64,000 bases of DNA from Desulfobaccales bacterium (GCA_044451265.1 JBIOJX010000001.1:1892-65891), one strand, 5' to 3'. Counted from the stretch's first letter, positions 13,277-60,813 are shown. Made by a program: numbers and translations. Notes: a model not told the origin generated them from the sequence alone.

Positions 13277-13334
13277 ATTTTATTTCGGGAGCATGGGGAC
13301 CAAAACGACGGTTAGGGCTCTCCCTTCTCACAAC

Positions 13335-13952: not shown

Positions 13953-13958
13953 GGCTTC

Positions 13959-14273
13959 TCACCTGGGTAGGCCCATCAAAGAGCGCAGCCGGTCCAGCAA
14001 CGATTCTTTCTGGGCCATCGGCCCGGCCAGGTCGGGGATTTCCAAAATCAAAGGTCTTAGCCGGTCTCGCCGGGCTCCATCTACTGCCTCCCGGACCTGG
14101 TCGGCCAGTCGTTCGGTAATCAGGACCAGTCCCACCTCAGGGTCTTCCCAAGACTTGACTAACAATTCCTGGACCTTGCCGGGGGTATGCGCCACTTCTC
14201 CCCTTATTCCGGCCAGGGAAAAGGCGTTAATGGTGTGTTCATCGGCAATAACAAAAAACTTCAGATTGTCCAT
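13959..14273 (-). CDS. atpF: V/A-type ATP synthase subunit F
   Basis: 104 aa: KFFVIADEHTINAFSLAGIRG...LVLITERLADQV. Confidence 0.85.
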   Translation of the reverse strand: MDNLKFFVIADEHTINAFSLAGIRGEVAHTPGKVQELLVKSWEDPEVGLVLITERLADQVREAVDGARRDRLRPLILEIPDLAGPMAQKESLLDRLRSLMGLPR

Positions 14274-14294
14274 GACATTATGGTTCTGGGCCGG

Positions 14295-16585
<2,291 letters not shown>

Positions 16586-16593
<8 letters not shown>

Positions 16594-17653
16594 AACGGCC
16601 TCCCGCGGCCCTTCCCCGGATCAGGGGGCTTAGCCGATCGGATGGGATTCTGAGGATAATACCGGTGAACAGGGTGATCAGGTTACGGATCTCCAATTCT
16701 TTTAATAGTAAATAAGTTATGGGCAAGCCGATCTGGAAGGGCGGCAGGGTAAAGACCTTCTCCAAGGTCTTCACCCAGTAACGGGTCAAACGTTCTTCCA
16801 CCGCGGCCAGGTCAGAGGCCCCTTCCAGCACCTCTCCATAAGGTCGCCGGGGTAAACGGGTGATCACGGCAGCCAGATTCGGGGCAAAGGCCAGGTCATG
16901 CCGTCGGCGTGGCTCCCCCAGGCTCCCGGCCTCCAGGAGGTACTGGTAGGTTTCCTCTCCGGGGAAGCCGTAGATCTCCCGAAAGCGTCCCGCCCAGATG
17001 ATGTTGTTGATATCCGCCAGGGTTCCAAGAAGTTGGCCTGATAGACGCCGGTCCCGTCCAGACAGGCTGTTCCGTCCTCGCAGGATGTAGTCGAATACCC
17101 AGAGATCTAATGACATTTCCAGGGGGAAGAGACTGTGCTCCCGCAAGTACCGGGGCAACCCCCGCACCAGGGGCGGCCCCCAAGGGGTGTTAGCCAGATA
17201 ATTCACCAGGGCGCTGATATCTCTCTGATTCAGCAACTCCCGGAAGTTCAACGGGGATAACCTATCCAACGGTATGAGCAGGCGAACCGCCTGGTCGGGG
17301 GCCAGCCCCCGGTGGAGTGTCCGCAGCACCACCTTGAGATTTTCCGCCACCAGCCTCTGCGCCAATATCCCGATAAAGAGCCGCTCCCGTTTCTTCAATC
17401 CCCGGCCCACCTTCTGGAAGGCCTGAGCCAACTCGCCATAGAGACGCTGGCTGAACTCACTTTCTGCCTCTGGGCTATGCCAGTCCCACCCACTTAAGGC
17501 CACTCCATATGCCGTGGTGGAGAGATATCCCAGAAAGTCATCGAGATGACGAGACCGCAGGAGAAAATGATAATCTTCCGCGGTTAGTAGAAAGCTTTTG
17601 AGAGCCATGATCTTGGCTCCCCCATAGGCATAGCGCCAGACCCTGAAGATCAT
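16586..17653 (-). CDS. atpC: V/A-type ATP synthase subunit C (d/AC39 family)
   Basis: 355-aa all-helical protein in the expected operon position. ATGA overlap with the upstream gene. Confidence 0.8.
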
Positions 17654-31043: not shown

Positions 31044-31802
31044 TCATGAACTCTTGAGGGCACGCACTTTTACGCTGAGGATCTTCCCGCGCAAACGCTC
31101 ATCCATTCCCGGCGCCTCATAGTAAGATTCATCAACTACTGCTACTTCCGTAAAGCCGGCGCGCCGGATGGTTTCCAGATAAGCCTCCTTTGCCATGGCT
31201 CCCGCCAGGCAGTCGGCCCAGGCTGCGGCGCTGGCCCGCACGTCCGGGGGCAGTTCGCCGCCCGTCACCAGATCCGCGATCAGTATGCGCCCGCCCGGCT
31301 TCAAAACCCGATGCACCTCTTTAAAACTCGCCAGTTTGTCCGGGGTCAGGTTGATCACGCAATTGCTGATGACCACATCCACGGTCGCCGAATCCACCGG
31401 GAGATGCTCAATATCGCCCTGACGGAACTCCACGTTGCCGAAGCCATGCTCCTGGGCCAGTTGCCGCCCGCGGGCCACCATGTCCTCGGTCATGTCCACG
31501 CCGATGACCCGCCCTTGCTCCCCGACTTTTTTGGCCGCTAGGAAGACGTCGATGCCGGCGCCGGAGCCCAGGTCCAAGACGGTTTCAGCCTCTTTGAGGT
31601 CCGCCAGTGCCGTAGGGTTCCCGCATCCCACGCCCAAAACGGCCAATTCTGGGACCAATTGCAGATCCTCCGCGGTATAGCCCACGGCCAGGCACTGGTC
31701 GGTGGTCGTCGGCCCGCAGGTGGGGCAACAGAAAGTCTGCTCCCCCCGGGCGATCTTGCCGTAACGGTCCTTAATAACATCCTTCAGTTTCTGATTAGCC
31801 AC
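31044..31802 (-). CDS. arsM: arsenite S-adenosylmethionine methyltransferase
   Basis: ..IKDRYGKIA...CC.TCG...VLDLGSGAGIDVFLAAKKVG..GRVIGVDMT..M...VISNCVINL..DK. GTG at 31802 preceded by AAGGAG. Confidence 0.9.
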   Translation of the reverse strand: MANQKLKDVIKDRYGKIARGEQTFCCPTCGPTTTDQCLAVGYTAEDLQLVPELAVLGVGCGNPTALADLKEAETVLDLGSGAGIDVFLAAKKVGEQGRVIGVDMTEDMVARGRQLAQEHGFGNVEFRQGDIEHLPVDSATVDVVISNCVINLTPDKLASFKEVHRVLKPGGRILIADLVTGGELPPDVRASAAAWADCLAGAMAKEAYLETIRRAGFTEVAVVDESYYEAPGMDERLRGKILSVKVRALKSS

Positions 31803-31824
31803 TCTTGCTCCTTGAATGCCGCCC

Positions 31825-32955
31825 TCACAAAATGGCATTGAAGATATAGCCGACGATGGTAATCCCCACGGCCACCACACCGATGAAGACCGCGATGAGC
31901 TTGGGCTTCAATACCTTCCGGAGGATGACTACTTCCGGGAAGGAAATGGCGATGACCGACATCATGAACGCCAGCGTCGTGCCCAGGGCCGCGCCTTTCT
32001 CCATCAGAGCCTGAACGATAGGAATAACGCCAGCTGCGTTGGAGTACCAAGGAACCCCGAAAAGAACCATTGCCGGCACCGACCACCAGGCCTTACCCAT
32101 ATATTTTGCCATCATGCCGGCGGGAATATAGCCGTGAATCGCCGCTCCGGCCCCGATCCCCAAGATGATATAGGGCCAGACCCGGCCCACGATTTCTCTT
32201 ACCTGGTGAAAGCCGTAATCGATGCGGCCCAGCCAGGTTAAGGTTTGCAGGTGGGCCGGAGCCTGCCCCATGCGGATCTCATAGACCCAGTCCTCCACCT
32301 GGCGCTCCATTCCCAGGCGCCCAATGATTATGCCGGTGGAGATGGCAATGATCAGTCCGGTGGTCATATAGAGCAGGGCGATACGCCAGCCGAACATGGC
32401 CCAAAGCAGTGCCAGGGCGATCTCATTCACCATGGGAGCCGTGATTAGAAAGGAAAAGGTGACGCCGATGGGAATGCCCGCTTCCATAAAGCCGATAAAC
32501 AGGGGCACCGCCGAACAAGAACAGAACGGCGTCACCACCCCCAGCGCCCCCGCCAGCCCATGGCCGAGGAACTCCCGTTTGCCAGCCAGGATGGTCCGGG
32601 TGCGCTCGGGGGTGAAAAAGGAGCGTATAACGCCTACGGCCCAGACGATCAGGAGCAGCAGCATGAAGACCTTGGGAATGTCCAGGAAGAAAAAGGCGAC
32701 GGATTCACCCAGGTGGGAGCCCTGGGCGATCCGGAAGGCGTCGTAGGCAATCCAACGGGAGAAGGGGTCCAGCCGGCTATAAATCGGATACCAGGCAATT
32801 AGCGCCAGGGCCAGTAAAAGCATCTTGAGGGTTTGACTGGCCGACACCGCCGCGATTGCGGCTTTCAATTTGGAAATGGGTTGTTCGGTCGTTTCAGCGG
32901 CGATTTCCATCGCCACCGCCTGCTCTTGAGGATTTTGGTTATCCATGGTTGACAT
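31825..32955 (-). CDS. arsP: ArsP-type permease (PF03773-like; organoarsenical efflux candidate)
   Basis: Multi-helix membrane protein with the TPFCSCSAVPLF vicinal-Cys motif characteristic of this permease family. Confidence 0.75.
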   Translation of the reverse strand: MSTMDNQNPQEQAVAMEIAAETTEQPISKLKAAIAAVSASQTLKMLLLALALIAWYPIYSRLDPFSRWIAYDAFRIAQGSHLGESVAFFFLDIPKVFMLLLLIVWAVGVIRSFFTPERTRTILAGKREFLGHGLAGALGVVTPFCSCSAVPLFIGFMEAGIPIGVTFSFLITAPMVNEIALALLWAMFGWRIALLYMTTGLIIAISTGIIIGRLGMERQVEDWVYEIRMGQAPAHLQTLTWLGRIDYGFHQVREIVGRVWPYIILGIGAGAAIHGYIPAGMMAKYMGKAWWSVPAMVLFGVPWYSNAAGVIPIVQALMEKGAALGTTLAFMMSVIAISFPEVVILRKVLKPKLIAVFIGVVAVGITIVGYIFNAIL

Positions 32956-36094: not shown

Positions 36095-37267
36095 TTAATC
36101 AGCCTGACTGGGTGGATTTGCATGGGCGCAAGTGGGACAGACATATAAGTCTTGATCCCCGCGCCGCCCCTTCAGAAGAGTGGCTTGAGTCGCCTCGATG
36201 CCGCAATCTGCACAGCATAAGGGAGTAAAATATTTTTTCCTGAACCATAGAGCCACGCCCACCAGGCTGATCAGCACCGGCACCTCCACCAGGGGGCCGA
36301 TGACTGCGGCGAAGGCCTCGCCCGACTGGAGCCCGAAGACTGCCACGGCCACTGCGATGGCCAGTTCGAAATTATTGCTGGCGGCAGTAAACGACAGGGT
36401 GGCGGAAATGCGATAGCCCGCCCCGGCCTTGGCCGACATATAAAACGTCACAAAAAACATGATGAAGAAATAGATGGTCAGGGGAATGGCGATGCGCACC
36501 ACATCCAGAGGGAGTTGCACGATATACTCGCCCTTGAGAGAGAACATCACCGCAATGGTGAATAGCAAGGCAATGAGGGTGATGGGGCTGATCTTGGGCA
36601 TGAATTTTTCTTCATACCACTTAATCCCCTTACGTTTGACCAGGAAGAAGCGGGTGAACATGCCGCCGAAGAAGGGGATGCCCAGGTAAATCATCACGCT
36701 TTCCGCCACCTGGAGGATGGTGACCTTGACTTCCAGACCCGAGGCGACCCCCAGCCAGGCGGGTAGCACCGTGACAAAAAGATAGGCGTAGATGGAGAAG
36801 AACAGCATCTGGAAGATGGAGTTGAAGGCCACCAGCCCGGCGCAGTATTCCGTATCGCCCTGGGCCAGGTCGTTCCAGACGATGACCATGGCGATGCAGC
36901 GGGCCAGGCCGATGATGATCAGCCCCACCATGTAGTGCGGGTAGCCCTGGAGAAAGGTGATAGCCAGCAGGAACATGAGGATGGGGCCGATCACCCAATT
37001 CTGCATCAAGGATAGGAACAAGACCTTGAAGTTTTTAAAAACCTGGGGCAGTTCCTCGTAGCGCACCTTGGCCAGCGGCGGGTACATCATCAGAATCAAG
37101 CCAATGGCGATGGGAATATTGGTGGTGCCCACCTGAAAGTAGGTCAACGCCTTGGTAAAACTGGGGACCAAATACCCCAGGGCAACTCCGGTAGCCATGG
37201 TCAGGAAAATCCAGAGGGTCAAGAAGCGCTCAACGAAACCCAGGCGTTTGGCAACAGTGGCGGCCAT
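36095..37267 (-). CDS. acr3: arsenite efflux transporter, ACR3 family, with extra C-terminal Cys-rich tail
   Basis: ..[14 protein letters not shown].., ..[12 protein letters not shown].., ..[13 protein letters not shown].. ACR3 hallmarks. Last 43 aa: [10 protein letters not shown]21-CPTCAH. Confidence 0.92.
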
Positions 37268-43783: not shown

Positions 43784-44296
43784 ATGGCGATAAAGCGCGT
43801 GACTGGGCGTCATGACTTCTTCCTGGCGGCCGGCCTCCTCGGTCTTGCCATGATTCTTGGGGTCATGTTCCATTGGCCCCTGGTGCGGGCTTCCTTGAGA
43901 GGAAACCTGACAACGCTGCTTGACCAGAAGCGCCAGGAACGACGAGAGGTGCAATTCCAAGGAGTAAAAACTTTGGATTTGGCGCAAGCCTACCAAATCT
44001 GGCAGCAAAAGCGAGTTCTCTTCGTGGACGCCCGCAAGGCCGAAGAATATCAGGAGTTACACGTTCAGGGGGCGATGAATGTCCCTCCGGAAACCTGGGG
44101 GGAGCTTGCATCTTCTGAATTGATGAAGAAGGATAGAATGGGGGAACTGGTGGTCTATTGCAGCCAGGAAAGCTGCGACGACGCCCTCAAATTGGCCAAA
44201 AAGCTGCGGGAGGCCGGTTTTACCCGGGTGCTGGCCTTTACTGGGGGCTTCCGGGCCTGGGACGAAGCCGGCTACCCGGCGGATACCAGTCGATAG
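43784..44296 (+). CDS. membrane-anchored rhodanese-domain sulfurtransferase
   Basis: N-terminal helix; ..VLFVDARKAEEYQELHVQGAMNVP...VVYCSQESCDDA (active-site Cys loop) ...GGFRAWDEAGYP. Confidence 0.85.
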   Translation: MAIKRVTGRHDFFLAAGLLGLAMILGVMFHWPLVRASLRGNLTTLLDQKRQERREVQFQGVKTLDLAQAYQIWQQKRVLFVDARKAEEYQELHVQGAMNVPPETWGELASSELMKKDRMGELVVYCSQESCDDALKLAKKLREAGFTRVLAFTGGFRAWDEAGYPADTSR

Positions 44297-44297
44297 C

Positions 44298-44801
44298 ATG
44301 ATAAAGGGGAGGGGGAATTTGTCAGCCTCGATTAAGCGGTTTGTATTTTCGATCTTAGGTTTGGGACTAGGTGGGGTTTTCGTCTATGCAGGCATCCAGA
44401 AGCACCTGGCCCCTTATGAGTTCGCCGAAGCCATCCTGGCCTACCAATTGCTGCCATTTGGACTGGTGGGTCTGGTGGCCGTAACCCTGCCCTGGTTGGA
44501 GATGGTTTCCGGGTTCTCCCTGGCCATGGGATACCTCATGCGAGGCCGGCGATTTTCCAACCCGATCCAAATGGGAGGCCTTCTCCGGCGCAGCGCCCTC
44601 CTGCTGATCTTGGGCCAGTCGCTCCTGTTTGTCGCCGTGCTACTTATCGCCATGGCCCGGGGGCTGAAAATCGACTGTGGCTGTGGTCTTTTTATGGATC
44701 GGCAAGTGGGATTTGGAGCCATCCTGGAAGACGCCTTGCTTTTGGGGGTGCTGGGGTGGCTTTACTGGCGGGAACGCCGGGCCGGGGTCCGAGAGCTTTA
44801 A
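44298..44801 (+). CDS. MauE/DoxX-family membrane protein
   Basis: Four hydrophobic helices; ..VYAGIQKHLAPYEFAEAILAYQLLP.. and a ..DCGCG.. motif. Commonly paired with rhodanese genes. Confidence 0.7.
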   Translation: MIKGRGNLSASIKRFVFSILGLGLGGVFVYAGIQKHLAPYEFAEAILAYQLLPFGLVGLVAVTLPWLEMVSGFSLAMGYLMRGRRFSNPIQMGGLLRRSALLLILGQSLLFVAVLLIAMARGLKIDCGCGLFMDRQVGFGAILEDALLLGVLGWLYWRERRAGVREL

Positions 44802-45983: not shown

Positions 45984-46415
45984 TCAACTTTGCCGGCAGC
46001 CGCAAGTCACCCCGGTCGCCGCCGGCCGGGCTGGTTCGCCAGCACCACCCTGCAACCGGCGGACTGCCTCTTTGACCTGGTCAATTTCTTCTCGCTTGAG
46101 ATTCAAGTCTTTGTTTTTGTCAATGCCCAAACCGGTAATCACCAGGTAGCCCCGCAGCGGCACCTCTGCCTGCTCAAGCACGCCTTTGGCGCAGCCAACC
46201 TCGCAGCCGTCAATGACCACCAGATTGTCGATATCCCTGGCTGACTGAACAAAACCGCTTAAGTGTGCTCCAACCCCGGCAAGGCAAGAGAGTTTACCGA
46301 AACCCTCTTGGGTCAATTCAATGGCGGCCTGGTTAGACAACTGCCCCACGTTGGAGCCTCCCGAGCAGGCCAGTATCATGGTGTTAACTGTGGGCTGACA
46401 GCAATCTGCGGCCAT
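45984..46415 (-). CDS. DGC-domain protein with N-terminal vicinal Cys (MAADCC)
   Basis: MILACSGGSNVGQLSNQAA...LSCLAGVGAH...LVVIDGCEVGCAKG is the canonical DGC layout. Start after the GGGAGG SD. Confidence 0.8.
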   Translation of the reverse strand: MAADCCQPTVNTMILACSGGSNVGQLSNQAAIELTQEGFGKLSCLAGVGAHLSGFVQSARDIDNLVVIDGCEVGCAKGVLEQAEVPLRGYLVITGLGIDKNKDLNLKREEIDQVKEAVRRLQGGAGEPARPAATGVTCGCRQS

Positions 46416-46504
46416 GGCGTTGCCTCCCAATTAAATATAATTTTGTACTTGATTAAGAACGTCAAATTTCTATATAGTAATATATAATTTTTAGGAGAGA
46501 GCAA

Positions 46505-46918
46505 GTGAAAATTTTGCTGAAGTCGTTAAAAGCCCTGGCGGACGGCAATCGTCTACGTATCATCAGGCTCCTGATGGATCGGCCGCGCTGCGTCTGTGAA
46601 CTGCAAGCGGCCTTGCGCATTGCCCAGCCCACCGTCTCCAAGCACTTGAGCATCTTGGAAGAGGCAGGTTGGGTGGATAAACAGCGCCAGGGGAAGAATT
46701 TTATCTTCTACCAGCTCATTGAAGGGTTAGCACCTGAAGATCACCATGCCGCGCTACTGTCCCTGTTAAGCCATTGGCTGCTTGAAGACCCCGAGCTGAT
46801 AACCCTCAGCCTCCTGGCGCATGATCTTAATCCCGAAGAGATTTTAAAGAGGGCGGGAAGCCCCCGACCCGGCCTCTGCCGGGAATGCGGCGCCGAAATT
46901 GCCCCTACCGAACGTTAA
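46505..46918 (+). CDS. ArsR/SmtB-family transcriptional regulator (third copy, divergent from the DGC gene)
   Basis: LKALADGNRLRIIRLLMDRPRCVCELQAALRIAQPTVSKHLSILEEAGWV. GTG start. Confidence 0.85.
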   Translation: MKILLKSLKALADGNRLRIIRLLMDRPRCVCELQAALRIAQPTVSKHLSILEEAGWVDKQRQGKNFIFYQLIEGLAPEDHHAALLSLLSHWLLEDPELITLSLLAHDLNPEEILKRAGSPRPGLCRECGAEIAPTER

Positions 46919-47504: not shown

Positions 47505-48629
47505 ATGATCAGGTCCCTTAACAGTTTTTTCCGGAGATTCTGGGTCTCAAAACCTCCTGCGTTCCAGTACCTCCAGGTGGAAGTGACCACCCGTTGCGAT
47601 CTCTCCGGCTGCTTGATGTGCCCCCGGAGCGCCTGGCCGGAGCGCTGGTTACACCAGGATCTCTCCTGGCAAAATTTTGAACGGCTCATCCCGGCTCTCA
47701 AATTTTTCAAACATGTTCATTTAAGCGGCTGGGGTGAGCCCCTGTTACACCCGCGGCTATGGGATATGGCCCAAGCAGCCCGCTCCCAGGGCTGCACCGT
47801 CAGCCTGACTACCAACGGCATGAATTTAACCGAAGCCATGCAGGTGCAGGTCTTGGAGCATCTGGACATGGTTGCGGTGTCACTGGATGGGGCAACGGCT
47901 GAAACTTTTGAGCGGCTGCGGCCTGGGGCCGATTTTCAGCGAGTCACCCAACAGGTTGCGGCGCTTTGCTCTCGCAAGCGGTCTCTGGGAAGACCGCGGC
48001 CGGAGGTGGTCTTACTGTTTATGAAGATGCGGCCTAATCTTACCGAATTACCTGCTTTCATCGAATTGGCTGCATCGTTTGGAGTTGATCGGGTCAATGC
48101 CACTAACCTGGATTTTATCCCAAATCCGGCAATGGAAGGCTTATCCCTCATAGCACCCAGTCCTCCAAGCCGGAAAATTGCAGAAGTGCTTGAACGGGCT
48201 GGTCAGAAGGCCAGGGAATTAAACTTGCCATTTCGCGATCTTAGCCTAATCTCGGCTGACGATCTTATGGTCTGCGCCGCCAATCCTCTTGAGAATGTCT
48301 TTGTCACCGCTTCCGGCGACCTCGCACCTTGCGTTTACCTGGGTCTGCCCTTATCTGGAGATTTCTCCAGGCAGTTCTTTCAAAAATCTGTCACCGCGCA
48401 AAATTACCTTTATGGCAGTATCCATCTCCAGGAATTTCTGGAAATCTTTCAACAACGGGCTTATCAGGAGTTCATTGGCTGTTTTCGCCGTCGGGTGCAA
48501 GAAAGTTCGAACCTGATTAATGATTTGGTGCCGAACTGCCAGACTTCAATTACGCAAAATCGGCTTACCTCGGAGCGATTTCCTTGGCCGCCTGCTTGCC
48601 AGGGATGTTACAAAAAACTCGGTTTTTAA
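47505..48629 (+). CDS. radical SAM protein with SPASM/twitch-like C-terminal domain
   Basis: ..LQVEVTTRCDLSGCLMCP.. cluster motif, GWGEPLLHP, SLDGATAETFERLR; C-terminal Cys-rich region ..CAANPLENVFVTASGDLAPCVYLG. Confidence 0.85.
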   Translation: MIRSLNSFFRRFWVSKPPAFQYLQVEVTTRCDLSGCLMCPRSAWPERWLHQDLSWQNFERLIPALKFFKHVHLSGWGEPLLHPRLWDMAQAARSQGCTVSLTTNGMNLTEAMQVQVLEHLDMVAVSLDGATAETFERLRPGADFQRVTQQVAALCSRKRSLGRPRPEVVLLFMKMRPNLTELPAFIELAASFGVDRVNATNLDFIPNPAMEGLSLIAPSPPSRKIAEVLERAGQKARELNLPFRDLSLISADDLMVCAANPLENVFVTASGDLAPCVYLGLPLSGDFSRQFFQKSVTAQNYLYGSIHLQEFLEIFQQRAYQEFIGCFRRRVQESSNLINDLVPNCQTSITQNRLTSERFPWPPACQGCYKKLGF

Positions 48630-48808: not shown

Positions 48809-49768
48809 ATGCGTATTCTCCTGAAACACGCTTGCCTGGTCCATGTGGTTCTGGCATTGGGCCTGGTCTTAATGATCAGCAGTTGCAGCGACGACCGCGA
48901 TAAAACGGTAGTGGACTTCTCCAGGACCGTGCCAGTGGCCCGGCCAGGAGAGCGGGCCTCCCCGACTCCGCCTTTGCGGGTTGCCGTGGCCGCCATGATT
49001 TCTCCAAAGGAGACCTTCGACCTCTACCGGCAACTTCTGGCCTACCTGGGGAGCAAGCTCGGTAAAGACCTGGAATTCGTACAACGTAAAACTTATGCGG
49101 AAATCGATGAACTTCTCAAAAAAGGCGAAATTGATCTGGCCTTCATCTGCTCGGGCCCTTATGTAGCCGGCAGGGGAAATTTTGGCTTCGAGTCCTTGGC
49201 CGTGCCAGAAATCCACGGCAGCCATTTCTACCACTCCTACCTGATTGTCAATAAAGAAAGCCCCATCCATCGCCTGGAAGAACTTAAAGGGCATACCTTT
49301 GCTTTTACTGACCCCGATTCCAATACCGGCCGGCTGGTCCCCACTTCCTGGCTGGCGGAAGTACATGAGAAGCCGGAAACCTTTTTCAACCGCATTGTCT
49401 ATACTTATAGCCATGATAATTCCATCATGGCGGTTGCCAGAAATCTGGTGGACGGCGCGACGGTGGACGGACTGATTTGGGACTTTTACCAACTGAAGAA
49501 TCCAACTTTTACTTCCCAAACCCGAATTATCAAGAAATCTGAACCATTCGGTAACCCGCCCCTGGTAGCTTCCAAGAACCTCTCAGTCGATTCCAAAGAG
49601 CGGATTCGGCAGATCTTATTCTCCATGCACCAGGACCCGGAAGGCAAAAAGATCCTAGCGGAATTGATGATTGACCGGTTTATCGCTCCTCAGGATGAAT
49701 GGTACGACAACCTGAGGCAGATGTACCAACGGGTAGCGGGAGGAAAAGATAAATCCCATGCGCCTTAG
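48809..49768 (+). CDS. PhnD-like periplasmic substrate-binding protein
   Basis: Signal/lipobox-like MISSCSD; ..[64 protein letters not shown].. Confidence 0.8.
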
Positions 49769-51950
49769 GAGCCTTCAGAGTAAGTTACTCCTTGCGGTCA
49801 GTGCCCTGGTTATCGCCAGTGGGCTGGTTATAACACTATTGCTCACCCGCCAATACAGTTCTGCCCTGCGCAAGGCCATGGTCAGCCAGGTGGAAAACGC
49901 TGCCCAAACCATTGCCCTGGATGCCGCAGACAAGATTCTCGTCAACGACCTGGTCTCCTTGCAAAGAATGCTGGACCAGCAGATTCAGAGCAACACCGCA
50001 CTTGGCTATATCTTGATTTTGAGAGATAGCCAGGTTCTTGCCCATACCTTTGAACGTGGCGTTCCCGCAGAATTGCTGGGCGCTAACCATACCGTTGCTG
50101 GAGAACGGCCCCACCTGCGGGAAATCGTTTCCCAAAAAGGGGAATACTTCCTCGATGCCGCCTGGCCTATCTTTGGAGGCAAGGCCGGAGTCTTGCGGCT
50201 GGGTTTTTCTGAAAGTCAATACCGCCGCCAGGTGGCCCAATTGTGGTTGGAGATCGGTTTGTTTACCCTGGGAATACTATTGATCGCCTGGATTGGGAGT
50301 CTGTTTTTCGTGCGGCGCATAACCCGACCCCTGGCTGCCCTGGTCCAGGCGACGCAAGAGATTGACCGGGGTGAATCGAATGTACAGGTTGACGTGCAGG
50401 GGCAGGATGAAATCGCAGCACTGGCGGAATCCTTCAACCACATGGTCAGCCGCCAGCAGGAATACACCCATCGTCTCGAAGAGCAGGCCATGGAGCTGGA
50501 GCGCTCCCATGGGCAGACTGTCACGGCCTGTAAAATTGTCCAAGAGGTCAGCGCCCTGCGTACCCTGGATGAGATGGGCGCCATTTTGTTGAAAAGACTG
50601 AAGGACTCCATGCTCTGCCAGCATCTGGTGTTGGCTCTCCTCAGCTCCGCTAAGGATACGCTTTATGTCCTGTCAGGCCAGAAGGCTAGGATATTTCATG
50701 ATCCGCAAATCATCCAGGCGGTCAAAGACAACTTGGAAGGGCTTAAAAATGTGACGTTCTCCCGCCGCAAACTCTTCAAAGCGCCTTTACTCCCCGAAGA
50801 CTTTACCCTGGCGGAGCGTCAGGCCATTATCCCGCTAAGCAGTGAGCAACTTTGCGGCGCCGCAATCGTAGCCTGCCCGGGAGGATGCGCCTGCAATCAA
50901 GAGGAGATCGAGCGGGTCCGCCTCATCTTGAACCAGACTGCTGGTGCTTTGGGCCGGGCCGTTTTCCACGAAGACGAGGTCATTGGGCTCAAAAAGCGGC
51001 TGGACGCGGCTACTGGATTTGGGGATTTGATCGGCAAAGACCCCAAGATGCAGCTGGTCTATAAGCTCATCGAAGACGTGGCGCCCTCGGATGCCACAGT
51101 ACTGATCCAGGGCGAAAGCGGGACTGGCAAGGAACTGGTGGCCCGGGCCATTCATCAGCATAGCCCCAGGAAAGACGGACCTTTCGTGGTAATTAATTGC
51201 TCGGCGTATCCCGCCACGCTGTTGGAGAGCGAACTTTTCGGCCATGAGAAAGGCTCCTTCACCGGGGCCTTGCGCCAAAAGGCGGGGCGGTTTGAGCAGG
51301 CCAATGGCGGCACGGTTTTTCTTGACGAGGTAGGGGACATTCCGCTCCCCGCCCAGGTCAAATTGCTGCGGGTCCTGCAAACCCGGAAATTTGAGCGAGT
51401 GGGAGGAGAGCAGACGCTCACGGTAGATGTGCGGGTCTTGGCGGCCAGCCATAAAGACCTGGTCCAAGAGGTCAAGAACGGCAACTTTCGGGAGGATCTC
51501 TTCTATCGACTCGATGTAATCCCCATCCACCTGCCGCCATTGCGGGAGCGCAAAAACGATATTCCTTTGCTGGTTGAGCATTTCCTGAAGCTTTTTTCTG
51601 CAGAAAGAAGAAAAGACATCCAAGGGCTCAGTTCTGAAGCCTTGCGAATACTTTTGAATTACTCCTGGCCGGGCAATGTCCGTGAACTGGAAAATACTAT
51701 CGAGCATGCCGTCGTCTTGGCTAAGGCTGGACAGGTGGACGCCTGGGATTTGCCTGCCGCCATTCAGGCTAGTTCGCCGGGAGCTTCGCCCACTCTGGCA
51801 CAGAGAGAGGGAAAAACCCTTCTGGAAATCCTGGAAGAATGCGGCTGGAATAAAAAATTGGCAGCCCAGCGCTTAGGGATTAGCCGCAGCACCCTCTATC
51901 TCATGCTGAAAAGGCACAAGATTTCCGGCTCCAAACCCACCACTCATTAA
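49758..51950 (+). CDS. membrane-anchored sigma-54-dependent transcriptional activator (2 TM + periplasmic domain + HAMP + GAF-like + AAA+ + Fis-type HTH)
   Basis: Hydrophobic helices near residues 10-30 and 165-190; HAMP ([10 protein letters not shown]...AESFNHMV); [14 protein letters not shown] Walker A; GSFTGA (GAFTGA variant); C-terminal [21 protein letters not shown]. 11-nt overlap with the PhnD-like gene. Confidence 0.9.
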
Positions 51951-51977
51951 GTCCACATCTCTTTCTCAACAGCCATT

Positions 51978-52079
51978 TGTGTCCGAAGGACCGTTTTCGC
52001 GTCCGATTTTAGGACATAGCTAATTAGCTGCAATAATTACTTATTTATAAAAGTGTCTAAGAGTGTCGTGTCCGATAGG
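51978..52079 (+). promoter_or_regulatory. candidate upstream activator sites: three GTCCGA-containing inverted repeats
   Basis: tGTGTCCgaaGGACc (51978-51991), gcGTCCgattttaGGACa (51999-52015), gtGTCCgataGGCC (52068-52079). They lie 110-215 nt upstream of the sigma-54 promoter, with an AT-rich stretch between. Confidence 0.3.
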
Positions 52080-52191
52080 CCTTGTCGGCCGATTGAGATC
52101 ATCCAGTTCGCACAACTTCCTCAAGGAAGTTTCATTATAATTTCAATCACATAAGGTTTGCGTAAGGAATTTCTGCAAAGCCCAGAAGGCT

Positions 52192-52207
52192 TGGCCTGAA
52201 ATATGCT
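52192..52207 (+). promoter_or_regulatory. sigma-54 (-24/-12) promoter TGGCCTGAAATATGCT
   Basis: The GG and GC dinucleotides are spaced exactly as in TGGCAC-N5-TTGCW. Located 34-49 nt upstream of the receiver gene that heads the molybdoenzyme operon. Confidence 0.55.
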
Positions 52208-52255
52208 CTTTAGATCAGGCAAAACTCCAATTAAGGGTCTTTGGGTAATTCAGTC

Positions 52256-52648
52256 ATGGGAATGCTCAGGGTTGCGGTAGTTGATGCTGATGTACAGTAT
52301 TGCCGGGAACTCTGCGCCTTGTTGGAGGAGGCCAATGTCCCGGTAGCCCCGCTCTATTCCCTGGAAGATTTGGCCGCGCACTTAAGGAGAGAGCCGGTTG
52401 CGGTGTTGATCATTGATCTGGATACCTTGCCAATCGACAATAACGTTTTTCGGAACCTTAAAAAACAATACGCCAACATGCATATCCTGTGTCTCTCCAG
52501 CCGCAATTATCACCCGGGCCTGGAAGAGGCTATGGGAGCGCATATTTGCGCCAGCCTGGCTAAGCCCTTAGACTCCGAGGAACTTTTTTACTGGCTTAAG
52601 GCCATTGCCGAAATTAACCCAGTGGAGCAAACCGAAAAACCCGGATGA
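52256..52648 (+). CDS. single-domain response-regulator receiver protein
   Basis: VAVVDAD...VLIIDLD...LCLSS...AKP pattern of CheY-like receivers. The track start (TTG 52241) is possible; ATG at 52256 is preferred. Confidence 0.7.
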
Positions 52649-52695
52649 AGGGTTGGTCCTTTAGTGCGGGGAATATGAATGAAGGAGATATCAGC

Positions 52696-53586
52696 ATGGA
52701 CAGACGTTCTTTTGTGAAGATAGGCGGTCTCCTAGGCGGCGCCCTTGGGGCGGCCGATCTTTTATTTATTGGAGACGCGCTTGCCAACCCTGCGGCTGAC
52801 CGAAGCGCCAGCCTGCCTGTGCTTGATCGGGTAAAAGCCGAGCCGGGCGAAGACGTGCTGATTCGCATGCAGCGTGAACTGGTCCGAGCGATGAACAAAC
52901 CCCTCGAGCAGCGGCGCTGGGGGATGGTCATCGACACGCGCAAGTGCGTTGGGTGTCATTCCTGTAATGTGGGCTGCATCATGGAAAACAAGCTCCCTCC
53001 CGGGGTGGTTTATCGCCCGGTGATCGACCAGGAAGTCGGCAGCTATCCCAATGTCGGCCGCAGGTTTCTGCCGCGGCCCTGCATGCATTGCGATAATCCT
53101 CCCTGCGTTCCGGTCTGCCCGGTCAAAGCCACCTGGAAGCGCCCCGACGGCGCGGTGGTGATTGATTATAATGTCTGTATCGGCTGCCGTTACTGCCTCA
53201 CCGCCTGCCCGTACCAGGCGCGGACGTTCGACTTCGGAGAGAACTGGGACAGTAAGGCCGCTTCCGGAAACGATGGGGGCCTGGCGCTGGAGACTTGCCG
53301 AAAATATGGGCAAGAGCCTTCTTTTGAGTATGGCTCCACCTGGCACCGCGGCGAAGGCGTCATCCCGAAAAGTCCGGTCGGTAATGCCCGGAAGTGCACC
53401 TTCTGTGTGCACCGGCTGGAGCATCGCCAATTGCCCATGTGCGTCACAACCTGCATCGGGAGGGCGACTTTTTTCGGCGACCTCAATGACCCGACGACTC
53501 TCGTATCCCAGCAAGCCGTACAAAACAACGCCGTGAGCTTAAAGCCGGAGCTTGGTACTACACCTAAGGTTCGTTACCTGCTTTAA
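52696..53586 (+). CDS. 4x[4Fe-4S] ferredoxin-type electron-transfer subunit (TtrB/PsrB/DmsB-like) with its own twin-arginine signal
   Basis: [20 protein letters not shown]; [45 protein letters not shown]...CVTTC. ATG at 52696 preceded by GAAGGAG. Confidence 0.9.
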
Positions 53587-53602
53587 CGCCAAGGAGGTCA
53601 CA

Positions 53603-54829
53603 ATGGCTGTCTCTTCCGTCTCTTCAATTGACATTGCCAGTCCTGCCAACCGGGCGCGCCTGTTATGGACCCTGTGGATTCTGGCGGCTATCATCGGCGG
53701 GATTGGTTTTATTGAGCGTTTGGTCCACGGCGAACAGGCCGCGGACTTTTCCAGTTATATCCCCTGGGGTCTGTGGGTTGCCGCTTATATCTATTTCAGT
53801 GGCTTGTCGGCCGGAGCGTTCCTGCTTGCCGCCGCTGCCTACGTTTTTAGAATACGGGTGCTCGAACCGATTGTCCGCCCGGCACTTCTCCTTGCTGCGG
53901 TGACGCTTCCCATGGGCCTGCTGCTCATCGGCTTTGACCTGGGCCATTTGGAAAGAGCTCTCCTGGTCTTCATCCGCCCCCAATTTCATTCGATGATGGC
54001 CTGGATGGTCTGGCTTTATACCGCCTACCTGATCCTGGTGATCGCGATGCTGTGGTTGAGCCTCAGGAGCATTCAGCCCGGCAGGAATCCTGAAGCGGTG
54101 GCCAATGACCGGGCCAGGGTGCGCCAGTTAGCAATTATTGGTATTCCCCTGGCTATCGCGTTTGCCGGAGGCGTCGGCGCCCTGTTTGCGACCCTCAACG
54201 CCCGGGAGTTTTGGAATTCCTCGTTATTTCCGGTCTTTTTCCTGGTCGGGGCCCTGACGTCCGGGACGGCCTTGGTGACTGCGGTGGTTGCCTGGCTCTG
54301 GCCTTCCCGGGATGCCGCCTGGAAAGACCTCGTGACTTTACTGGGTCGTATCGTTTTGGTGTTCATCCTCATCGATGTTGTCCTGGAATGGGCGGAGTTT
54401 TCGACCCCGTCATGGTATCAGATCGGCTCGTTTTTTGAGATCACCAGGTATGTCCTGTTTGGACCATACTGGTATGTGTTCTGGCTGGTGCACCTGCTGC
54501 TGGGCGTCCTCGTGCCGATTCTGCTCCTGGCAAAAGCCCGCAGCCCGGTGGTCACGGGAGTCGCTGCCGCCCTGGTGACGATCACCTTCTTCGCGGTACG
54601 GCTGAATCTGGTGATCCCCGGTCTGATCACTCCGGAACTTCGAGGCCTGGAGCAGGCATATCGCGATCCCATCGGCAACCGGCTCACCTTCGCCTACTTC
54701 CCGTCCTGGTCTGAGTGGGAATTGCTCCTGGGCGTGATTGCTGTCGGCGTTGCCCTTTGGTACGTGGTGGTACGACGATTCCCGCAAGTTTTCCTTAGTC
54801 CTGCGCAATCCAGTGAGGTGAGCCAATGA
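53603..54829 (+). CDS. NrfD/PsrC/TtrC-family integral membrane quinol-interacting subunit
   Basis: About 8-10 helices; ..YIPWGLWVAAYIYFSGLSAGAFLL.. typical NrfD N-terminal motif. ATG at 53603 preceded by AAGGAGG. Confidence 0.88.
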   Translation: MAVSSVSSIDIASPANRARLLWTLWILAAIIGGIGFIERLVHGEQAADFSSYIPWGLWVAAYIYFSGLSAGAFLLAAAAYVFRIRVLEPIVRPALLLAAVTLPMGLLLIGFDLGHLERALLVFIRPQFHSMMAWMVWLYTAYLILVIAMLWLSLRSIQPGRNPEAVANDRARVRQLAIIGIPLAIAFAGGVGALFATLNAREFWNSSLFPVFFLVGALTSGTALVTAVVAWLWPSRDAAWKDLVTLLGRIVLVFILIDVVLEWAEFSTPSWYQIGSFFEITRYVLFGPYWYVFWLVHLLLGVLVPILLLAKARSPVVTGVAAALVTITFFAVRLNLVIPGLITPELRGLEQAYRDPIGNRLTFAYFPSWSEWELLLGVIAVGVALWYVVVRRFPQVFLSPAQSSEVSQ

Positions 54830-57978: not shown

Positions 57979-58067
57979 GCGCTCGCCTTGGGGTGGTAGC
58001 CCTTCACCAGGATGAACTGGACCGCATCATAATCGGTGGCGCCATAGCCTTACAGGAGCCTAATGAG

Positions 58068-58784
58068 ATGGAGCAAGCCGTAAATACCAAGACCTCGGTG
58101 CAAACCTTTGAGGAGTTGCTGGCCGGTTCGGTAGCGGCTCATGGCCACCTGTGCCCAGGTCAGATCGTGGGAGTACGGATGGGCCTCCTGGGCCTGCGCC
58201 TCCTGGGTTTCGAGGCCCCGCCGACGTATCCCCAACTGAAGCAGCTCGTCGTCTTTATCGAGATGGACCGCTGCACCGGCGACGCGGTGGCTTTTGTCAC
58301 CAATGTTAAGCTGGGGCGGCGGTCCCTGAAGTTCATGGACTACGGCATCATGGCGGCCACCTTCGTAAATCTGGAAAGTGGCCGGGCCTTCCGGGTCATC
58401 TCTACTGAGGAATCCCGGGACCTGGCCCTGATGTACGCCCCCCTGGAGACCGACAAGCGCGCGGCCCAATTGACCGCGTACCGGATTATGCCGGATAGCG
58501 TGCTCTTCCGGGTGCAGCAGGTGCAAGTCGACCTGACCCCCTTTGACCTGCCGGGCCCGACCCGCCGCAAAGTTACCTGCGTGCACTGCGGCCAGGTGGT
58601 CCGGGATAACCGGGAGGTGGTCAAAGATGGCCTGTCTTACTGTCGGCCATGCGCCGGCGGGGGATATTTTACGGCGGCCCGAGAGATTGCCTGGGAAGAA
58701 ATGAACTGGGCGCCGATATCACCGGGTCTGAAAAAACCTGGTTTACCGATCCCAAATGAGTCGGCCGCAGGGAGCCGCCAGTAG
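58068..58784 (+). CDS. FmdE-family protein with C-terminal zinc ribbon
   Basis: ..AAHGHLCPGQIVGVRMG.. FmdE signature; ..CVHCGQVV...SYCRPCAG. Internal ATG at 58068 preferred over GTG at 57993. Confidence 0.8.
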   Translation: MEQAVNTKTSVQTFEELLAGSVAAHGHLCPGQIVGVRMGLLGLRLLGFEAPPTYPQLKQLVVFIEMDRCTGDAVAFVTNVKLGRRSLKFMDYGIMAATFVNLESGRAFRVISTEESRDLALMYAPLETDKRAAQLTAYRIMPDSVLFRVQQVQVDLTPFDLPGPTRRKVTCVHCGQVVRDNREVVKDGLSYCRPCAGGGYFTAAREIAWEEMNWAPISPGLKKPGLPIPNESAAGSRQ

Positions 58785-58800
58785 TCATGAGGTCATTGAG

Positions 58801-59832
58801 ATGATTAAAACCATAAAGCTGGAAGAAGCCATCGGGACCGAACTGGCACATGATATCACCGAGATTCGACCGGGAGAATTCAAGGGTCCCGCCTTCCGCA
58901 AGGGTCACACTGTCTGCCAGGACGATATCTGCCGCATGCAGCGCCTGGGGAAAAACCACCTCTACGTTATCGATCTCGAGGCCGATGAAATCCATGAGAA
59001 CGAAGCTGCGGCCATCCTGGCCGGGGCCCTGGCCGGCGAGGGAGTGACCTGGGAAAATAATCCCAGGGAAGGAAAAATCAATCTCTATGCCGATCGGGAT
59101 GGTCTGCTCCAGGTGGGCGTCCAGGCCCTGGCTGCGTTTAATCTGGTGGATGAGGTGATGTGCGCCACCCTACATAATCATACCATGGTGAAGAAAGGGG
59201 AACTCATTGGCGCCACCCGAGCCATCCCACTGATCATGAAACGAGCCGCCATCGAACGTGCCGCGAGCATTGCCCGTCAAAATGACGCGGTGCTGGCAGT
59301 GCGCCCCCTGACGCAGGCTAAAGCCGGCCTGGTCATCACCGGCAACGAAGTCTATCATGGCCTGATCCAGGACCGGTTCGCTCCCATCCTCTCAGCCAAG
59401 TTGGAGCGTCTGGGGTCCGAGGTGGCTGCTCTTACCTTCGCCCCGGATGATGCCGGGATGATCACCGCCGCCATTCGCGACCATCTAAGCCGGGGCTGCA
59501 ACCTGCTCCTGCTCAGCGGCGGCATGAGCGTGGACCCGGATGACGTCACCCGCCACGCCATCCGCCAGGCCGGGGCCACCGAAATGCATTACGGGTCAGC
59601 GGTCCTGCCCGGGGCAATGTTCCTGGTGGCTTATCTGGGAGAGACGCCCTTGCTGGGGGTGCCCGCCTGTGCCCTGCACCACCCGGTTACCGCCCTGGAC
59701 CTGGTTTTGCCGCGCATCCTGGCGGGGGAACGCCTCGGCAAGCTGGAACTGGCCCTCCTGGGGCATGGCGGCCTGTGCCGGGACTGCCCCCAGTGCAGCT
59801 ACCCCCATTGCCCCTTCGGCAAAGGCATGTGA
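58801..59832 (+). CDS. molybdopterin-binding (MoeA/MoaB-like domain) protein
   Basis: ..VITGNEVYHGLIQDRFAPILSAKLERLGSEV....LLLLSGGMSVDPDDVT.. MoCF-biosynthesis-domain pattern. Start MIKTIKL. Confidence 0.7.
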   Translation: MIKTIKLEEAIGTELAHDITEIRPGEFKGPAFRKGHTVCQDDICRMQRLGKNHLYVIDLEADEIHENEAAAILAGALAGEGVTWENNPREGKINLYADRDGLLQVGVQALAAFNLVDEVMCATLHNHTMVKKGELIGATRAIPLIMKRAAIERAASIARQNDAVLAVRPLTQAKAGLVITGNEVYHGLIQDRFAPILSAKLERLGSEVAALTFAPDDAGMITAAIRDHLSRGCNLLLLSGGMSVDPDDVTRHAIRQAGATEMHYGSAVLPGAMFLVAYLGETPLLGVPACALHHPVTALDLVLPRILAGERLGKLELALLGHGGLCRDCPQCSYPHCPFGKGM

Positions 59833-59835
59833 GTC

Positions 59836-60813
59836 ATGGAAGAAGCCGCTGCACGGCAAATCAATTATCTGCGGATTTCCATTACGGACCGCTGCAATCT
59901 CCGTTGCGGCTATTGTACCTATTGGCAGGAATTTGAACGGTTGCCGCCCGGGGAGATCCTCAGCTATGAGGAGTTGTTGCGGCTTGCCGCGGTGGCGGCG
60001 AAGATTGGCATTCGGAAAATCAGGGTCACCGGCGGCGAGCCCCTGGTGCGCCGGGGAGTGGTGGACTTTCTCCATAACCTGCACCGGACGCCCGGGATTG
60101 AGGAAGTATGCCTGACCACCAATGGCGTGCTGCTGGCGGACTTGGCTCCGGCCTTATATGAGACAGGACTCCGCCACCTTAACCTCAGCCTGGACACCCT
60201 GCGCCGTGAGCGCTATCGAGAAATCACCGGCCGGGATAATTTGGGGGAGGTCCTGGCCGGACTGGAGCGGGCCGTCACCCTGGGCTTCGGCCCTTTAAAA
60301 ATCAATTGTGTGGTGTTGGCCGGCATCAATGACGATGAGCTGATGGATCTGGCCCTCCTGGCCAGGGATCACCCCTATCAGGTGCGGTTCATCGAGCTGA
60401 TGCCCACGGTTTCGCCCCGGCAGTGGCAGCAGAACTTTCTTCCCATGGCGGAGGTCCGCCGTCGTCTGGCCGCTCTGGGTCCCATGGCCGCGACGGACCG
60501 CCGGACTACAGACGGTCCGGCCCAGATCTTTCAGCTACCCGGCTTTCAAGGAGAACTGGGGTTTATCACCCCCATCAGTTCCCATCACTGCCGCACCTGC
60601 AATCGCCTGCGTCTGACCGCAGGCGGCGCCTTGCGGCCCTGTCTTTTTGGCGACGCCGAAATTGATGTAAAGACCCCCTTGAGGCAAGGGGCCTCCGAGG
60701 GTTGGCTGGCTTCGCTTTTCGCCGAAGCCATCACCCAAAAATCCGCCAGATTCTCCTTGCCACCCGCTCCTTTCCCCCTTTACAGCTCCTCCATGGTCAG
60801 CATCGGCGGCTGA
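59836..60813 (+). CDS. moaA: GTP 3',8-cyclase (molybdenum cofactor biosynthesis protein A)
   Basis: INYLRISITDRCNLRCGYCTY, VTGGEPLVR, TTNG..L, C-terminal CxxCNRLRLTAGGALRPCLF. Confidence 0.92.
   Translation: MEEAAARQINYLRISITDRCNLRCGYCTYWQEFERLPPGEILSYEELLRLAAVAAKIGIRKIRVTGGEPLVRRGVVDFLHNLHRTPGIEEVCLTTNGVLLADLAPALYETGLRHLNLSLDTLRRERYREITGRDNLGEVLAGLERAVTLGFGPLKINCVVLAGINDDELMDLALLARDHPYQVRFIELMPTVSPRQWQQNFLPMAEVRRRLAALGPMAATDRRTTDGPAQIFQLPGFQGELGFITPISSHHCRTCNRLRLTAGGALRPCLFGDAEIDVKTPLRQGASEGWLASLFAEAITQKSARFSLPPAPFPLYSSSMVSIGG

Follow-up and report, generated by a model that had tools for sequence, protein, structure and literature searches.

How might a signal from outside the cell reach a sigma-54 promoter when no histidine kinase accompanies the activator? 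This question is raised by a gene cassette in a 64,000-nucleotide stretch of DNA from a Desulfobaccales bacterium (GCA_044451265.1 JBIOJX010000001.1:1892-65891), the whole of which we call the window. In this cassette, the gene of a periplasmic solute-binding protein (SBP) is followed by that of a 730-aa sigma-54-dependent enhancer-binding protein (EBP), hereafter the activator, and then by a receiver-only gene that opens a molybdoenzyme operon. Enhancer-binding proteins are taken to be soluble proteins whose activity depends on phosphorylation, small ligands or partner proteins. Our analyses suggest, with a probability that we put at about 0.65, that the cassette encodes an SBP-dependent, membrane-integrated sigma-54 activator, i.e., a one-polypeptide counterpart of the three-component AioX-AioS-AioR type. 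A first-pass annotation of the window had proposed a one-component transmembrane route, and sequence and comparative genomics agree with it: the conserved pairing of both genes, an SBP of the signalling type, the lack of transporter genes, the DNA sites and the existence of kinase counterparts all point to such a route. Three refinements are made: the closest precedent would be AioXSR/ArrXSR rather than PhnD, the ligand need not be a sulfur oxyanion, and further inputs besides the periplasmic one may exist.

Domain architecture of the activator and its kinase relatives

Pfam matches and Kyte-Doolittle hydropathy bear out what had been read in the activator before, namely two hydrophobic helices, a HAMP domain, an AAA+ domain with a GSFTGA loop and a Fis-type helix-turn-helix (HTH), with no receiver domain. 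Means over 19 residues exceeded 2 over both hydrophobic stretches, the putative transmembrane (TM) helices TM1 and TM2, and in Pfam the activator gave no match to Response_reg, HisKA or HATPase_c. The sequence features of the EBP class are present: a sigma-54 AAA+ domain with Walker A and B motifs (GESGTGKE and FLDEVG), a GAFTGA-type loop and the C-terminal Fis-type HTH; an AAA lid is found as well. The loop consensus across the activator family is GAFTGA, and the GSFTGA variant of the window has been recorded for DVU3220, a response-regulator EBP to which target operons have been assigned (PMC4641369). The AAA+-HTH part is 41% identical to AioR over 300 aa. A Foldseek search of the PDB with the full-length AlphaFold2 (AF2) model returned only AAA+ matches (ZraR, NtrC1 and FleQ, with 53-56% identity to ZraR 1ojl in the Foldseek alignment) and none for the sensor domains.

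A deposited NCBI protein (P0001, 703 aa) is 100% identical to the activator across the covered part. It starts at an internal TTG, 27 codons downstream of the ATG at 49758, and TM1 is thereby lost. Since M1 and the following residues are conserved in 88 homologues, we hold the long 730-aa form, and not the P0001 start, to be right. A homologue search with the N-terminal 417 residues of the activator gave 244 homologues, and in nearly all of the 120 listed the protein is about 730 aa long.

The first-pass annotation had described the segment between the helices as about 135 extracytoplasmic residues. We refine this to a divergent single-Cache (sCache) domain of predicted periplasmic location, as indicated by relatives and a structure model. 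Among 13 close family members, 3 gave a significant match to the Pfam family sCache_3_2 (best E=3e-9), as did 53 of 62 distant relatives. In the AF2 model, the segment forms a long helix followed by 5 strands. The Cache-like domain has many invariant residues, e.g., H96, W136-P137 and G141-K142-A143-G144. Together, the HAMP match, the hydropathy, sCache_3_2 in the relatives and the AF2 model give the activator the TM-Cache-TM-HAMP layout of Cache/HAMP receptors.

Behind HAMP, a GAF-like region had been noted previously. Residues 250-415 are weakly supported as GAF-like, with GAF_2 matching 2 of 13 family members (E=0.005) and an alpha/beta fold in the AF2 model. Of the cysteines in this domain, C258 is invariant, and C287 and C373 are found in at least 90%; a C-x-C at C377/C379, within an A-C-P-x-G-C-x-C stretch, is kept in at least 90% of the 13 closer relatives. 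These cysteines could be ligands of a metal or an Fe-S cluster, or sites at which sulfur or arsenic compounds react, and by analogy they could add a redox or metal input. OrpR of Desulfovibrio vulgaris is an Fe-S-cluster-sensing sigma-54 activator with three conserved cysteines for redox sensing (PMC8359166). Like OrpR, the window protein is a Desulfobacterota EBP with three conserved cysteines (C258, C287 and C373) in a sensory alpha/beta domain; OrpR, however, is soluble and carries its cysteines in a PAS domain, and the two are likened by description and not by domain homology.

The sensor module is otherwise mostly found on kinases. Searched against 1.8 billion representative proteins, a TM1-Cache-TM2 profile hit 2022 clusters. 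Among 62 full-length distant relatives, 48 had a kinase ATPase domain, a few were GGDEF or chemoreceptor proteins and only three had a sigma-54 domain. The kinase P0180 has the order sCache-HAMP-GAF-HisKA_3-HATPase, and its sensor module is 31% identical to activator residues 5-257 over 254 aa (E=7e-28). Its locus (L083) encodes, in this order, a PF12974 SBP, the kinase, a NarL-type regulator, a Fer4 protein, NrfD and a 1060-aa molybdopterin subunit. P0180 thus shares with the window system the homologous sensor module, the SBP family encoded upstream and a Ttr-like Fer4-NrfD-molybdopterin operon downstream, whereas kinases of this type, which occur in Desulfobacterota and other bacteria, differ in their output, HisKA_3-HATPase and a separate NarL-type response regulator. 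P0183, P0187 and P0197 (two kinases and one GGDEF-EAL protein) also have an SBP homologue encoded directly upstream, so that the SBP gene lies just upstream in 4/4 kinase/GGDEF relatives examined. Because these relatives share the SBP partner, the AioX-like SBP and the Cache-HAMP transducer appear as a portable two-gene sensor. By these comparisons, the activator family would be the form in which the sensor output is a built-in sigma-54 activator that replaces the kinase.

The absence of a histidine kinase had been claimed for the window before. Searching its open reading frames of at least 50 aa by phmmer with 59 histidine-kinase C-termini found no histidine-kinase core; the EBP itself was the sole match, via three EBP C-termini among the queries.

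The binding protein and its conserved pairing with the activator

The SBP had been called PhnD-like, which holds for its family, PF12974, and does not hold for PhnD in the sense of a transport protein. Among solved structures, it is closest to the arsenate sensor ArrX (6x6b; E=1.6e-58, 40% identity) and to the arsenite sensor AioX (E=1e-43, about 35% identity), whereas the transport proteins PhnD, PtxB and HtxB reach only E=1e-19 to 1e-13 (PhnD and PtxB about 1e-19 to 1e-15). The SBP passes the NCBIfam model TIGR01098 of the phosphate/phosphite/phosphonate SBP subfamily (140 bits, cut-off 112) and misses the PhnD equivalog cut-off (144 vs 261). A transport PhnD is ruled out by the proximity to ArrX and AioX and by the missed equivalog cut-off. 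By its alignments, the SBP is placed in the AioX/ArrX/ArxX sensor clade of PF12974. In AioX, phosphate and arsenite are bound by Y88, C106, Y131, S161, N162, S163, H192 and D210 (PMC5908839), and the equivalents in the alignment are Y96, C114, Y141, S171, N172, T173, H202 and D220. The N-terminus is a hydrophobic run that ends in LMISS|C26, a lipoprotein-type signal. Lipobox regular expressions found such a signal in 32/67 and then in 31/57 SBP homologues; as they were too crude, we keep the lipoprotein claim to the window SBP and a dozen homologue N-termini read by eye.

When one genome per species was scanned, 159 genomes held a relative, and 80 of these were kept for the analysis of their loci. 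All 80 belong to the Desulfobacterota (Desulfobaccales, Syntrophobacterales, Desulfomonilaceae, Desulfobacterales, Desulfohalobiaceae and others). In these loci, the SBP gene is always 5' of the activator gene where the contig extends that far, and the order SBP, EBP, receiver-only protein, complex iron-sulfur molybdoenzyme operon is kept in nearly all, while the outer flanks vary. The overlap of 11 nt between the SBP stop (49766-49768) and the EBP ATG (49758) had been seen in the first pass and is confirmed by the coordinates of the reading frames; overlaps of 11-44 nt occur in 49/67 loci. The SBP-EBP pair is hence, as its reading frames indicate, mostly translationally coupled. The SBPs of related loci are at least 52% identical to the window SBP. 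In a mirror-tree comparison, the Cache, HAMP, GAF-like and AAA+ parts of the activator hardly differed in their correlation with SBP distances (r=0.81-0.85), and no part was singled out. No phosphonate-type ABC permease or ATPase gene adjoins the SBP gene in the window or in L001 and L002, the related loci with full gene listings.

Some genomes have two paralogous copies of the module: L003 and L007 (VGSW01), L028 and L041 (JTS-AC162), and L067 and L071 (MFD03804.bin.1.209). The activators and enhancer sites of such paralogous modules would need mutual insulation.

Candidate promoter and enhancer sites and the operon downstream

Between the activator gene and the receiver-only gene lie a candidate sigma-54 promoter, TGGCCTGAAATATGCT, and two candidate enhancer sites. 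For all these DNA sites, weight comes from conservation in related loci and not from window statistics. A TGGCAY-N5-TTGCY-type element occupies the same intergenic position in most of about 70 loci scanned. Upstream of it, the first-pass annotation had seen three inverted repeats sharing GTCCGA. This hexamer is indeed clustered at three sites (51981, 52001 and 52070), with 3 of the 18 copies of the 64 kb falling within 95 bp, and this clustering is the one DNA feature that is conspicuous in the window by itself; the conserved element, however, is a 19-bp palindrome, GCGTCCGATTTTAGGACAT, with the family consensus GTGTC-N9-GACAC, together with a second, GTGTC-rich site (GTGTCTAAGAGTGTCGTGTCCGA...). 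With at most 2 mismatches, GTGTC-N9-GACAC occurs in 57/67 related intergenic regions. In related loci, 69 palindrome sites were counted where 5.5 would be expected, and none of 200 shuffles gave more than 13; the distance from these sites to the -24 element downstream is 83-276 bp, mostly 140-270. A second GTGTC-type site is often found in related loci about 64 bp farther downstream, and several of these second sites (L022, L027, L028) are palindromes. Judging from this conservation, we take the GTCCGA repeats to be part of a real two-site enhancer with the core GCGTCCGATTTTAGGACAT and the element at 52053-52089.

In many related loci (e.g., L002, L008, L043 and L048), sequences like AACTATTTGAT lie between the two enhancer sites. 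AACTATTTGAT matches the consensus of integration host factor (IHF), TATCAAATAGTTA on the other strand, and AAATAGTT was found in 16 loci vs 1.8 expected. In these relatives, the IHF-like sequence is thus located between both activator sites and not between enhancer and promoter. In the window, no IHF consensus match was found between enhancer and promoter even with one mismatch, nor an IHF-like match between its two enhancer sites with one mismatch allowed. No rpoN gene was identified in the 64-kb window.

The receiver and molybdoenzyme operon that had been placed downstream is confirmed by Pfam and NCBIfam matches, and its order is kept in relatives; the cofactor and maturation genes are syntenic in many loci with long enough contigs, including L001 and L002. 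The catalytic subunit has the TtrA model NF011567 as its best match, yet with 470 bits against a curated cut-off of 1750 it remains far below equivalog level. Twin-arginine motifs are present at the N-termini of the B-like (DRRSFVK) and A-like (SRRYFL) subunits, from which it follows that the molybdoenzyme would face the periplasm. The module is not confined to one enzyme type. In L039 and L078, the two loci that were scored, it precedes ArrA-like enzymes (about 1300 bits vs the ArrA model), and six to ten further loci share their A-B gene order; a PhsA-like enzyme follows in L014. In some loci (L012, L023), a type III sulfide:quinone reductase is inserted after the receiver gene.

What might the ligand be? 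The Ttr-like enzyme suggests a tetrathionate-like sulfur oxyanion, as TtrS, the regulator of ttrBCA, uses a PhnD-like domain (PMC5408782). The nearest characterised relatives of the SBP, on the other hand, sense arsenic oxyanions. Arsenic-handling genes for ACR3, ArsM, an ArsP-type permease and an ArsR/SmtB regulator are situated 2-18 kb upstream of the cassette (Table 1), and they may bear on the ligand since the SBP is ArrX/AioX-like. The SBP sequence does not decide the matter. Specificity positions compared between Ttr-like, ArrA-like and PhsA-like loci gave three weakly discriminating columns, with 0 at the eight pocket positions; the ligand is hence unreadable from columns so few, weak and outside the pocket. 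From the sequences, a sulfur oxyanion and an arsenic oxyanion are both candidate ligands.

Table 1. Positions of the cassette genes, activator domains, candidate DNA sites and arsenic-related genes in the window
Feature	Position	Strand	Basis
SBP gene	48809-49768	+	319 aa; PF12974 Phosphonate-bd, E=1.4e-68
Membrane-integrated sigma-54 activator (EBP) gene, predicted	49758-51950	+	730 aa; Pfam and NCBIfam matches
TM1, residues ~10-30	49785-49847	+	hydropathy up to 2.68; helix in AF2 model
Periplasmic single-Cache-like domain, residues ~31-161	49848-50240	+	sCache_3_2 in relatives; AF2 topology
TM2, residues ~162-186	50241-50315	+	hydropathy up to 2.29; HAMP directly after
HAMP, residues 183-232	50304-50453	+	PF00672, E=1.5e-15
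Cytoplasmic GAF-like alpha/beta domain, residues ~250-415	50505-51002	+	alignments, GAF_2, AF2 secondary structure
GAF-like domain cysteines C258-C379	50529-50894	+	alignments
AAA+ sigma-54 interaction domain, residues 424-591	51027-51530	+	PF00158, E=3.2e-73
GSFTGA loop, residues 499-504	51252-51269	+	read in sequence
Fis-type HTH (HTH_8), residues 679-719	51792-51914	+	PF02954, E=6e-11
Candidate enhancer site 1, 19-bp palindrome GCGTCCGATTTTAGGACAT	51999-52017	.	family consensus GTGTC-N9-GACAC; 193 bp upstream of -24
Candidate enhancer site 2, GTGTC-rich element GTGTCTAAGAGTGTCGTGTCCGA...	52053-52089	.	~64 bp downstream of site 1, past AT-rich spacer
Candidate sigma-54 -24/-12 promoter TGGCCTGAAATATGCT	52192-52207	+	correct GG/GC spacing; kept in relatives
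Receiver-only gene, first of regulated operon	52241-52648	+	135 aa; Response_reg, E=2e-7
TtrB-like 4Fe-4S protein	52645-53586	+	NCBIfam TtrB and DsrO matches
NrfD/TtrC-like membrane protein	53552-54829	+	Pfam NrfD
TtrA-like molybdopterin subunit, 1050 aa	54826-57978	+	NCBIfam TtrA, E=1e-140
FmdE-domain, MoCF_biosynth-domain (molybdenum-cofactor biosynthesis) and MoaA-like radical SAM genes	57993-60813	+	Pfam; cofactor/maturation
ArsM arsenite methyltransferase	31044-31880	-	309 bits, cut-off 263
ArsP-type permease	31825-32955	-	
ACR3 arsenite efflux transporter	36095-37267	-	449 bits, cut-off 283
ArsR/SmtB regulator	46505-46918		DGC-domain protein (45984-46430) adjoins

Other neighbours of the cassette include a radical SAM/SPASM gene (47505-48629) directly upstream of the SBP gene, a position that is kept only in L011 among related loci. 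Genes for a rhodanese-domain protein and a MauE/DoxX-like membrane protein (43784-44801) lie a few kb upstream of the cassette and may indicate a sulfur-transfer context. Farther away, the minus strand carries V/A-type ATPase genes (10120-17653) for the A and B subunits, subunit I and the C/AC39 subunit. A tRNA-Phe gene (5605-5680, plus strand) adjoins a phage-type integrase gene (5700-6941, minus strand), a pair that could be the edge of an integrated element.

Proposed signalling route and its rivals

In the proposed route, the lipoprotein-type SBP of the AioX/ArrX clade would capture a periplasmic oxyanion and, loaded with its ligand, dock onto the single-Cache domain of the activator. TM2 and HAMP would carry the signal across the membrane as they do in sensor kinases. 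No kinase would be driven, however; the signal would release the activator's own AAA+ domain or permit its assembly. The Fis-type HTH would hold the activator on the two GTGTC-N9-GACAC-type sites about 130-195 bp upstream, where the AAA+ domain would oligomerise and remodel sigma-54 RNA polymerase at the 52192 promoter. As a result, the receiver-only gene, the periplasm-facing Ttr-like molybdoenzyme and the cofactor genes would be switched on. Here, we infer the membrane insertion, the contact between SBP and Cache domain, the control of AAA+ by HAMP and the ligand. The target promoter is always located immediately downstream of the activator gene, so that, in analogy to CadC and ToxR, insertion into the membrane during translation would hold the DNA site close to the protein. 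Furthermore, the induced operon encodes membrane or Tat-exported proteins, which fits a regulator unable to diffuse through the cytoplasm.

The nearest known scheme is AioX-AioS-AioR, which acts at an RpoN promoter before molybdoenzyme genes and in which the SBP activates the kinase AioS, which phosphorylates AioR (PMC5908839). The sensor domain of AioS has been described as sCache-like (PMC8050422). AioXSR, ArxXSR and ArrXSR share with the window system the SBP subclade of PF12974 with its conserved pocket residues. In AioXSR, moreover, the aioX and aioS genes overlap (strain NT-26) like those of the window SBP and EBP, the sensor combines an sCache-like periplasmic domain with two TM helices and HAMP, and a sigma-54 AAA+ activator works at an RpoN promoter that directly precedes a molybdoenzyme operon of the DMSO-reductase family. 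The differences concern the relay: the window system has neither the histidine kinase (S) nor the receiver-AAA+-HTH regulator (R), its sensor module is fused directly to GAF-like-AAA+-HTH, and its receiver domain is a separate protein, whose gene opens the target operon. The enzyme is Ttr-like and not Aio, Arx or Arr, although ArrA-like enzymes follow the module elsewhere. The window system is hence best read, at the level of sequence, as the AioXSR scheme collapsed, with sensor and AAA+-HTH fused, the kinase core gone and the receiver set apart as a small protein.

TtrS-TtrR of Salmonella and Shewanella offers a second comparison, since there too a PhnD-like periplasmic unit controls a ttrBCA-type operon (PMC5408782), and the gene order B-C-A is the same. 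In TtrS, however, the PhnD-like domain is fused to the kinase, whereas the window SBP is a separate gene. TtrR is a LuxR/NarL-type regulator at a sigma-70-type promoter, in contrast to the AAA+ activator and sigma-54-type promoter of the window, where no GerE-type regulator is found; also, the window catalytic subunit fails the TtrA equivalog score. ToxR, CadC and VtrA likewise combine outside sensing and inside DNA binding in one protein, with the promoter next to the regulator gene. ToxS is the periplasmic partner protein of ToxR. VtrC is that of VtrA (PMC9214523). Yet these proteins have one TM helix and an N-terminal winged helix, and they work with sigma-70 polymerase without ATP. The window activator runs the other way round: two TM helices and HAMP come first, and the AAA+ motor, which must oligomerise, and the Fis-type HTH are C-terminal. 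Its likeness to ToxR and CadC is functional only.

Several observations weigh against the proposed route. The window EBP itself stays below significance for sCache_3_2, and the AF2 model is moderate (pLDDT 68) with a poor AAA+ part. The EBP N-terminus and AioS of strain NT-26 are collinear, but their alignment is not significant (E=0.06-0.2). The SBP pocket is constant across Ttr-like, ArrA-like and PhsA-like loci, which is odd if the SBP sets specificity. The receiver-only protein retains the phospho-acceptor Asp, Ser and Lys, which leaves room for an unlinked kinase. A HAMP dimer would have to control a hexameric AAA+ ring that is anchored by 12 TM helices. On the DNA, the promoter at 52192-52207 proposed in the first pass has exact GG/GC spacing and is conserved in relatives, but in the window alone it is at chance level (22 equal-score sites per 64 kb vs about 20 expected); the same applies to the palindrome, with 15 sites of at most 2 mismatches in 64 kb.

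In a first rival reading, the Cache domain of the activator would bind the signal directly, with the SBP as an accessory such as a scavenger, buffer, chaperone or transport component. For single-Cache domains it is common to be the binding site of a small ligand, and this usual role, the many invariant residues of the periplasmic domain and an SBP pocket without covariation with the enzyme type all speak for it. We nevertheless regard direct binding as unlikely. The only known role of the closest SBP relatives is signalling to an sCache-like sensor (PMC5908839), the SBP gene is coupled to the sensor gene in almost all loci with SBP-EBP flanking sequence as well as in the kinase/GGDEF relatives, and no ABC permease or ATPase gene stands beside the SBP. 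An SBP that serves an ABC transporter encoded elsewhere is a possibility already raised by the first-pass annotation, in which case the position beside the activator would be meaningless. PF12974 is named after ABC phosphonate transport and the SBP passes TIGR01098, but adjacency across 80 genomes with changing flanks, overlapping reading frames, a far closer relation to the sensors ArrX and AioX than to transport proteins, and the missed PhnD equivalog make such a transporter role hardly credible.

A cryptic phosphorelay would put the receiver-only protein first: an unlinked kinase would phosphorylate it, the signal would pass on to the activator or the enzyme, and the membrane part of the activator would be an anchor or a secondary input. 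The receiver-only gene is indeed found 3' of the EBP gene in nearly all loci, with D59, D61, S86 and the unusual pair H91 and P92 kept in 64-67/68, P109 in 63/68 and K108 in 55/68. Moreover, a 569-aa protein elsewhere in the window (3713-5422, minus strand) joins an N-terminal receiver to a eukaryotic-type Ser/Thr protein kinase domain. However, the acidic pocket of the receiver is degenerate (D15 in 33/68), no kinase core occurs in the window, L001 or L002, and the sigma-54 promoter precedes the receiver gene, which would hence be the activator's output and not its upstream input. We thus consider a phosphorelay improbable. Regulated proteolysis, by contrast, would free a soluble GAF-AAA+-HTH fragment, and transcription would not be activated at the membrane. 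Membrane-tethered transcription factors freed by proteolysis are well known, and release would solve the geometry of a ring anchored by 12 TM helices. Still, no protease gene is conserved in the cassette, HAMP directly after TM2 favours conformational signalling as in the homologous kinases, and the invariable cis position of the target promoter suits a tethered regulator, which leaves release by cleavage quite improbable.

The SBP-dependent, membrane-integrated activator may receive more than one signal, as the conserved receiver-only protein and the cysteine-bearing cytoplasmic domain suggest further inputs. We may speculate that the receiver-only protein, encoded by the first gene of the induced operon, provides feedback. 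More tentatively, and with considerable doubt, one could see here a new receptor class, a permanently membrane-embedded AAA+ motor whose ring assembly is HAMP-gated and which acts only in cis, on a promoter that co-translational insertion of the encoded proteins holds at the membrane. Its inputs would be a periplasmic oxyanion sensed through an AioX-like lipoprotein, the cytoplasmic redox or metal state sensed through the three GAF cysteines, and feedback from the receiver-only protein that it induces. In that case, transcription activators would join the receptors that are stimulated by solute-binding proteins. Our literature search found no described membrane-integrated or HAMP-containing EBP, a weak negative given that few subscription papers were covered. 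The receptors named in a 2021 review of SBP signalling are chemoreceptors, kinases, cyclic-di-GMP enzymes and Ser/Thr kinases, with no transcription activators among them (PMC8050422). Database annotation already calls such proteins 'HAMP domain-containing' and 'sigma-54 interacting'.

If the proposed route is true, a conserved family with a kinase-type sensor module on an AAA+ motor would mean that the output of HAMP can be carried over to a hexameric ATPase, and it raises the structural question of how dimeric HAMP signals lead to ring assembly at the membrane. A compact two-gene biosensor, SBP plus activator, would result for the sensed oxyanion; the engineered TtrSR and ThsSR sensors are a parallel. 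In ecological terms, the module would serve as a marker, in uncultured relatives of sulfate reducers, of respiratory enzymes of the Ttr-like, ArrA-like and PhsA-like types that are inducible.

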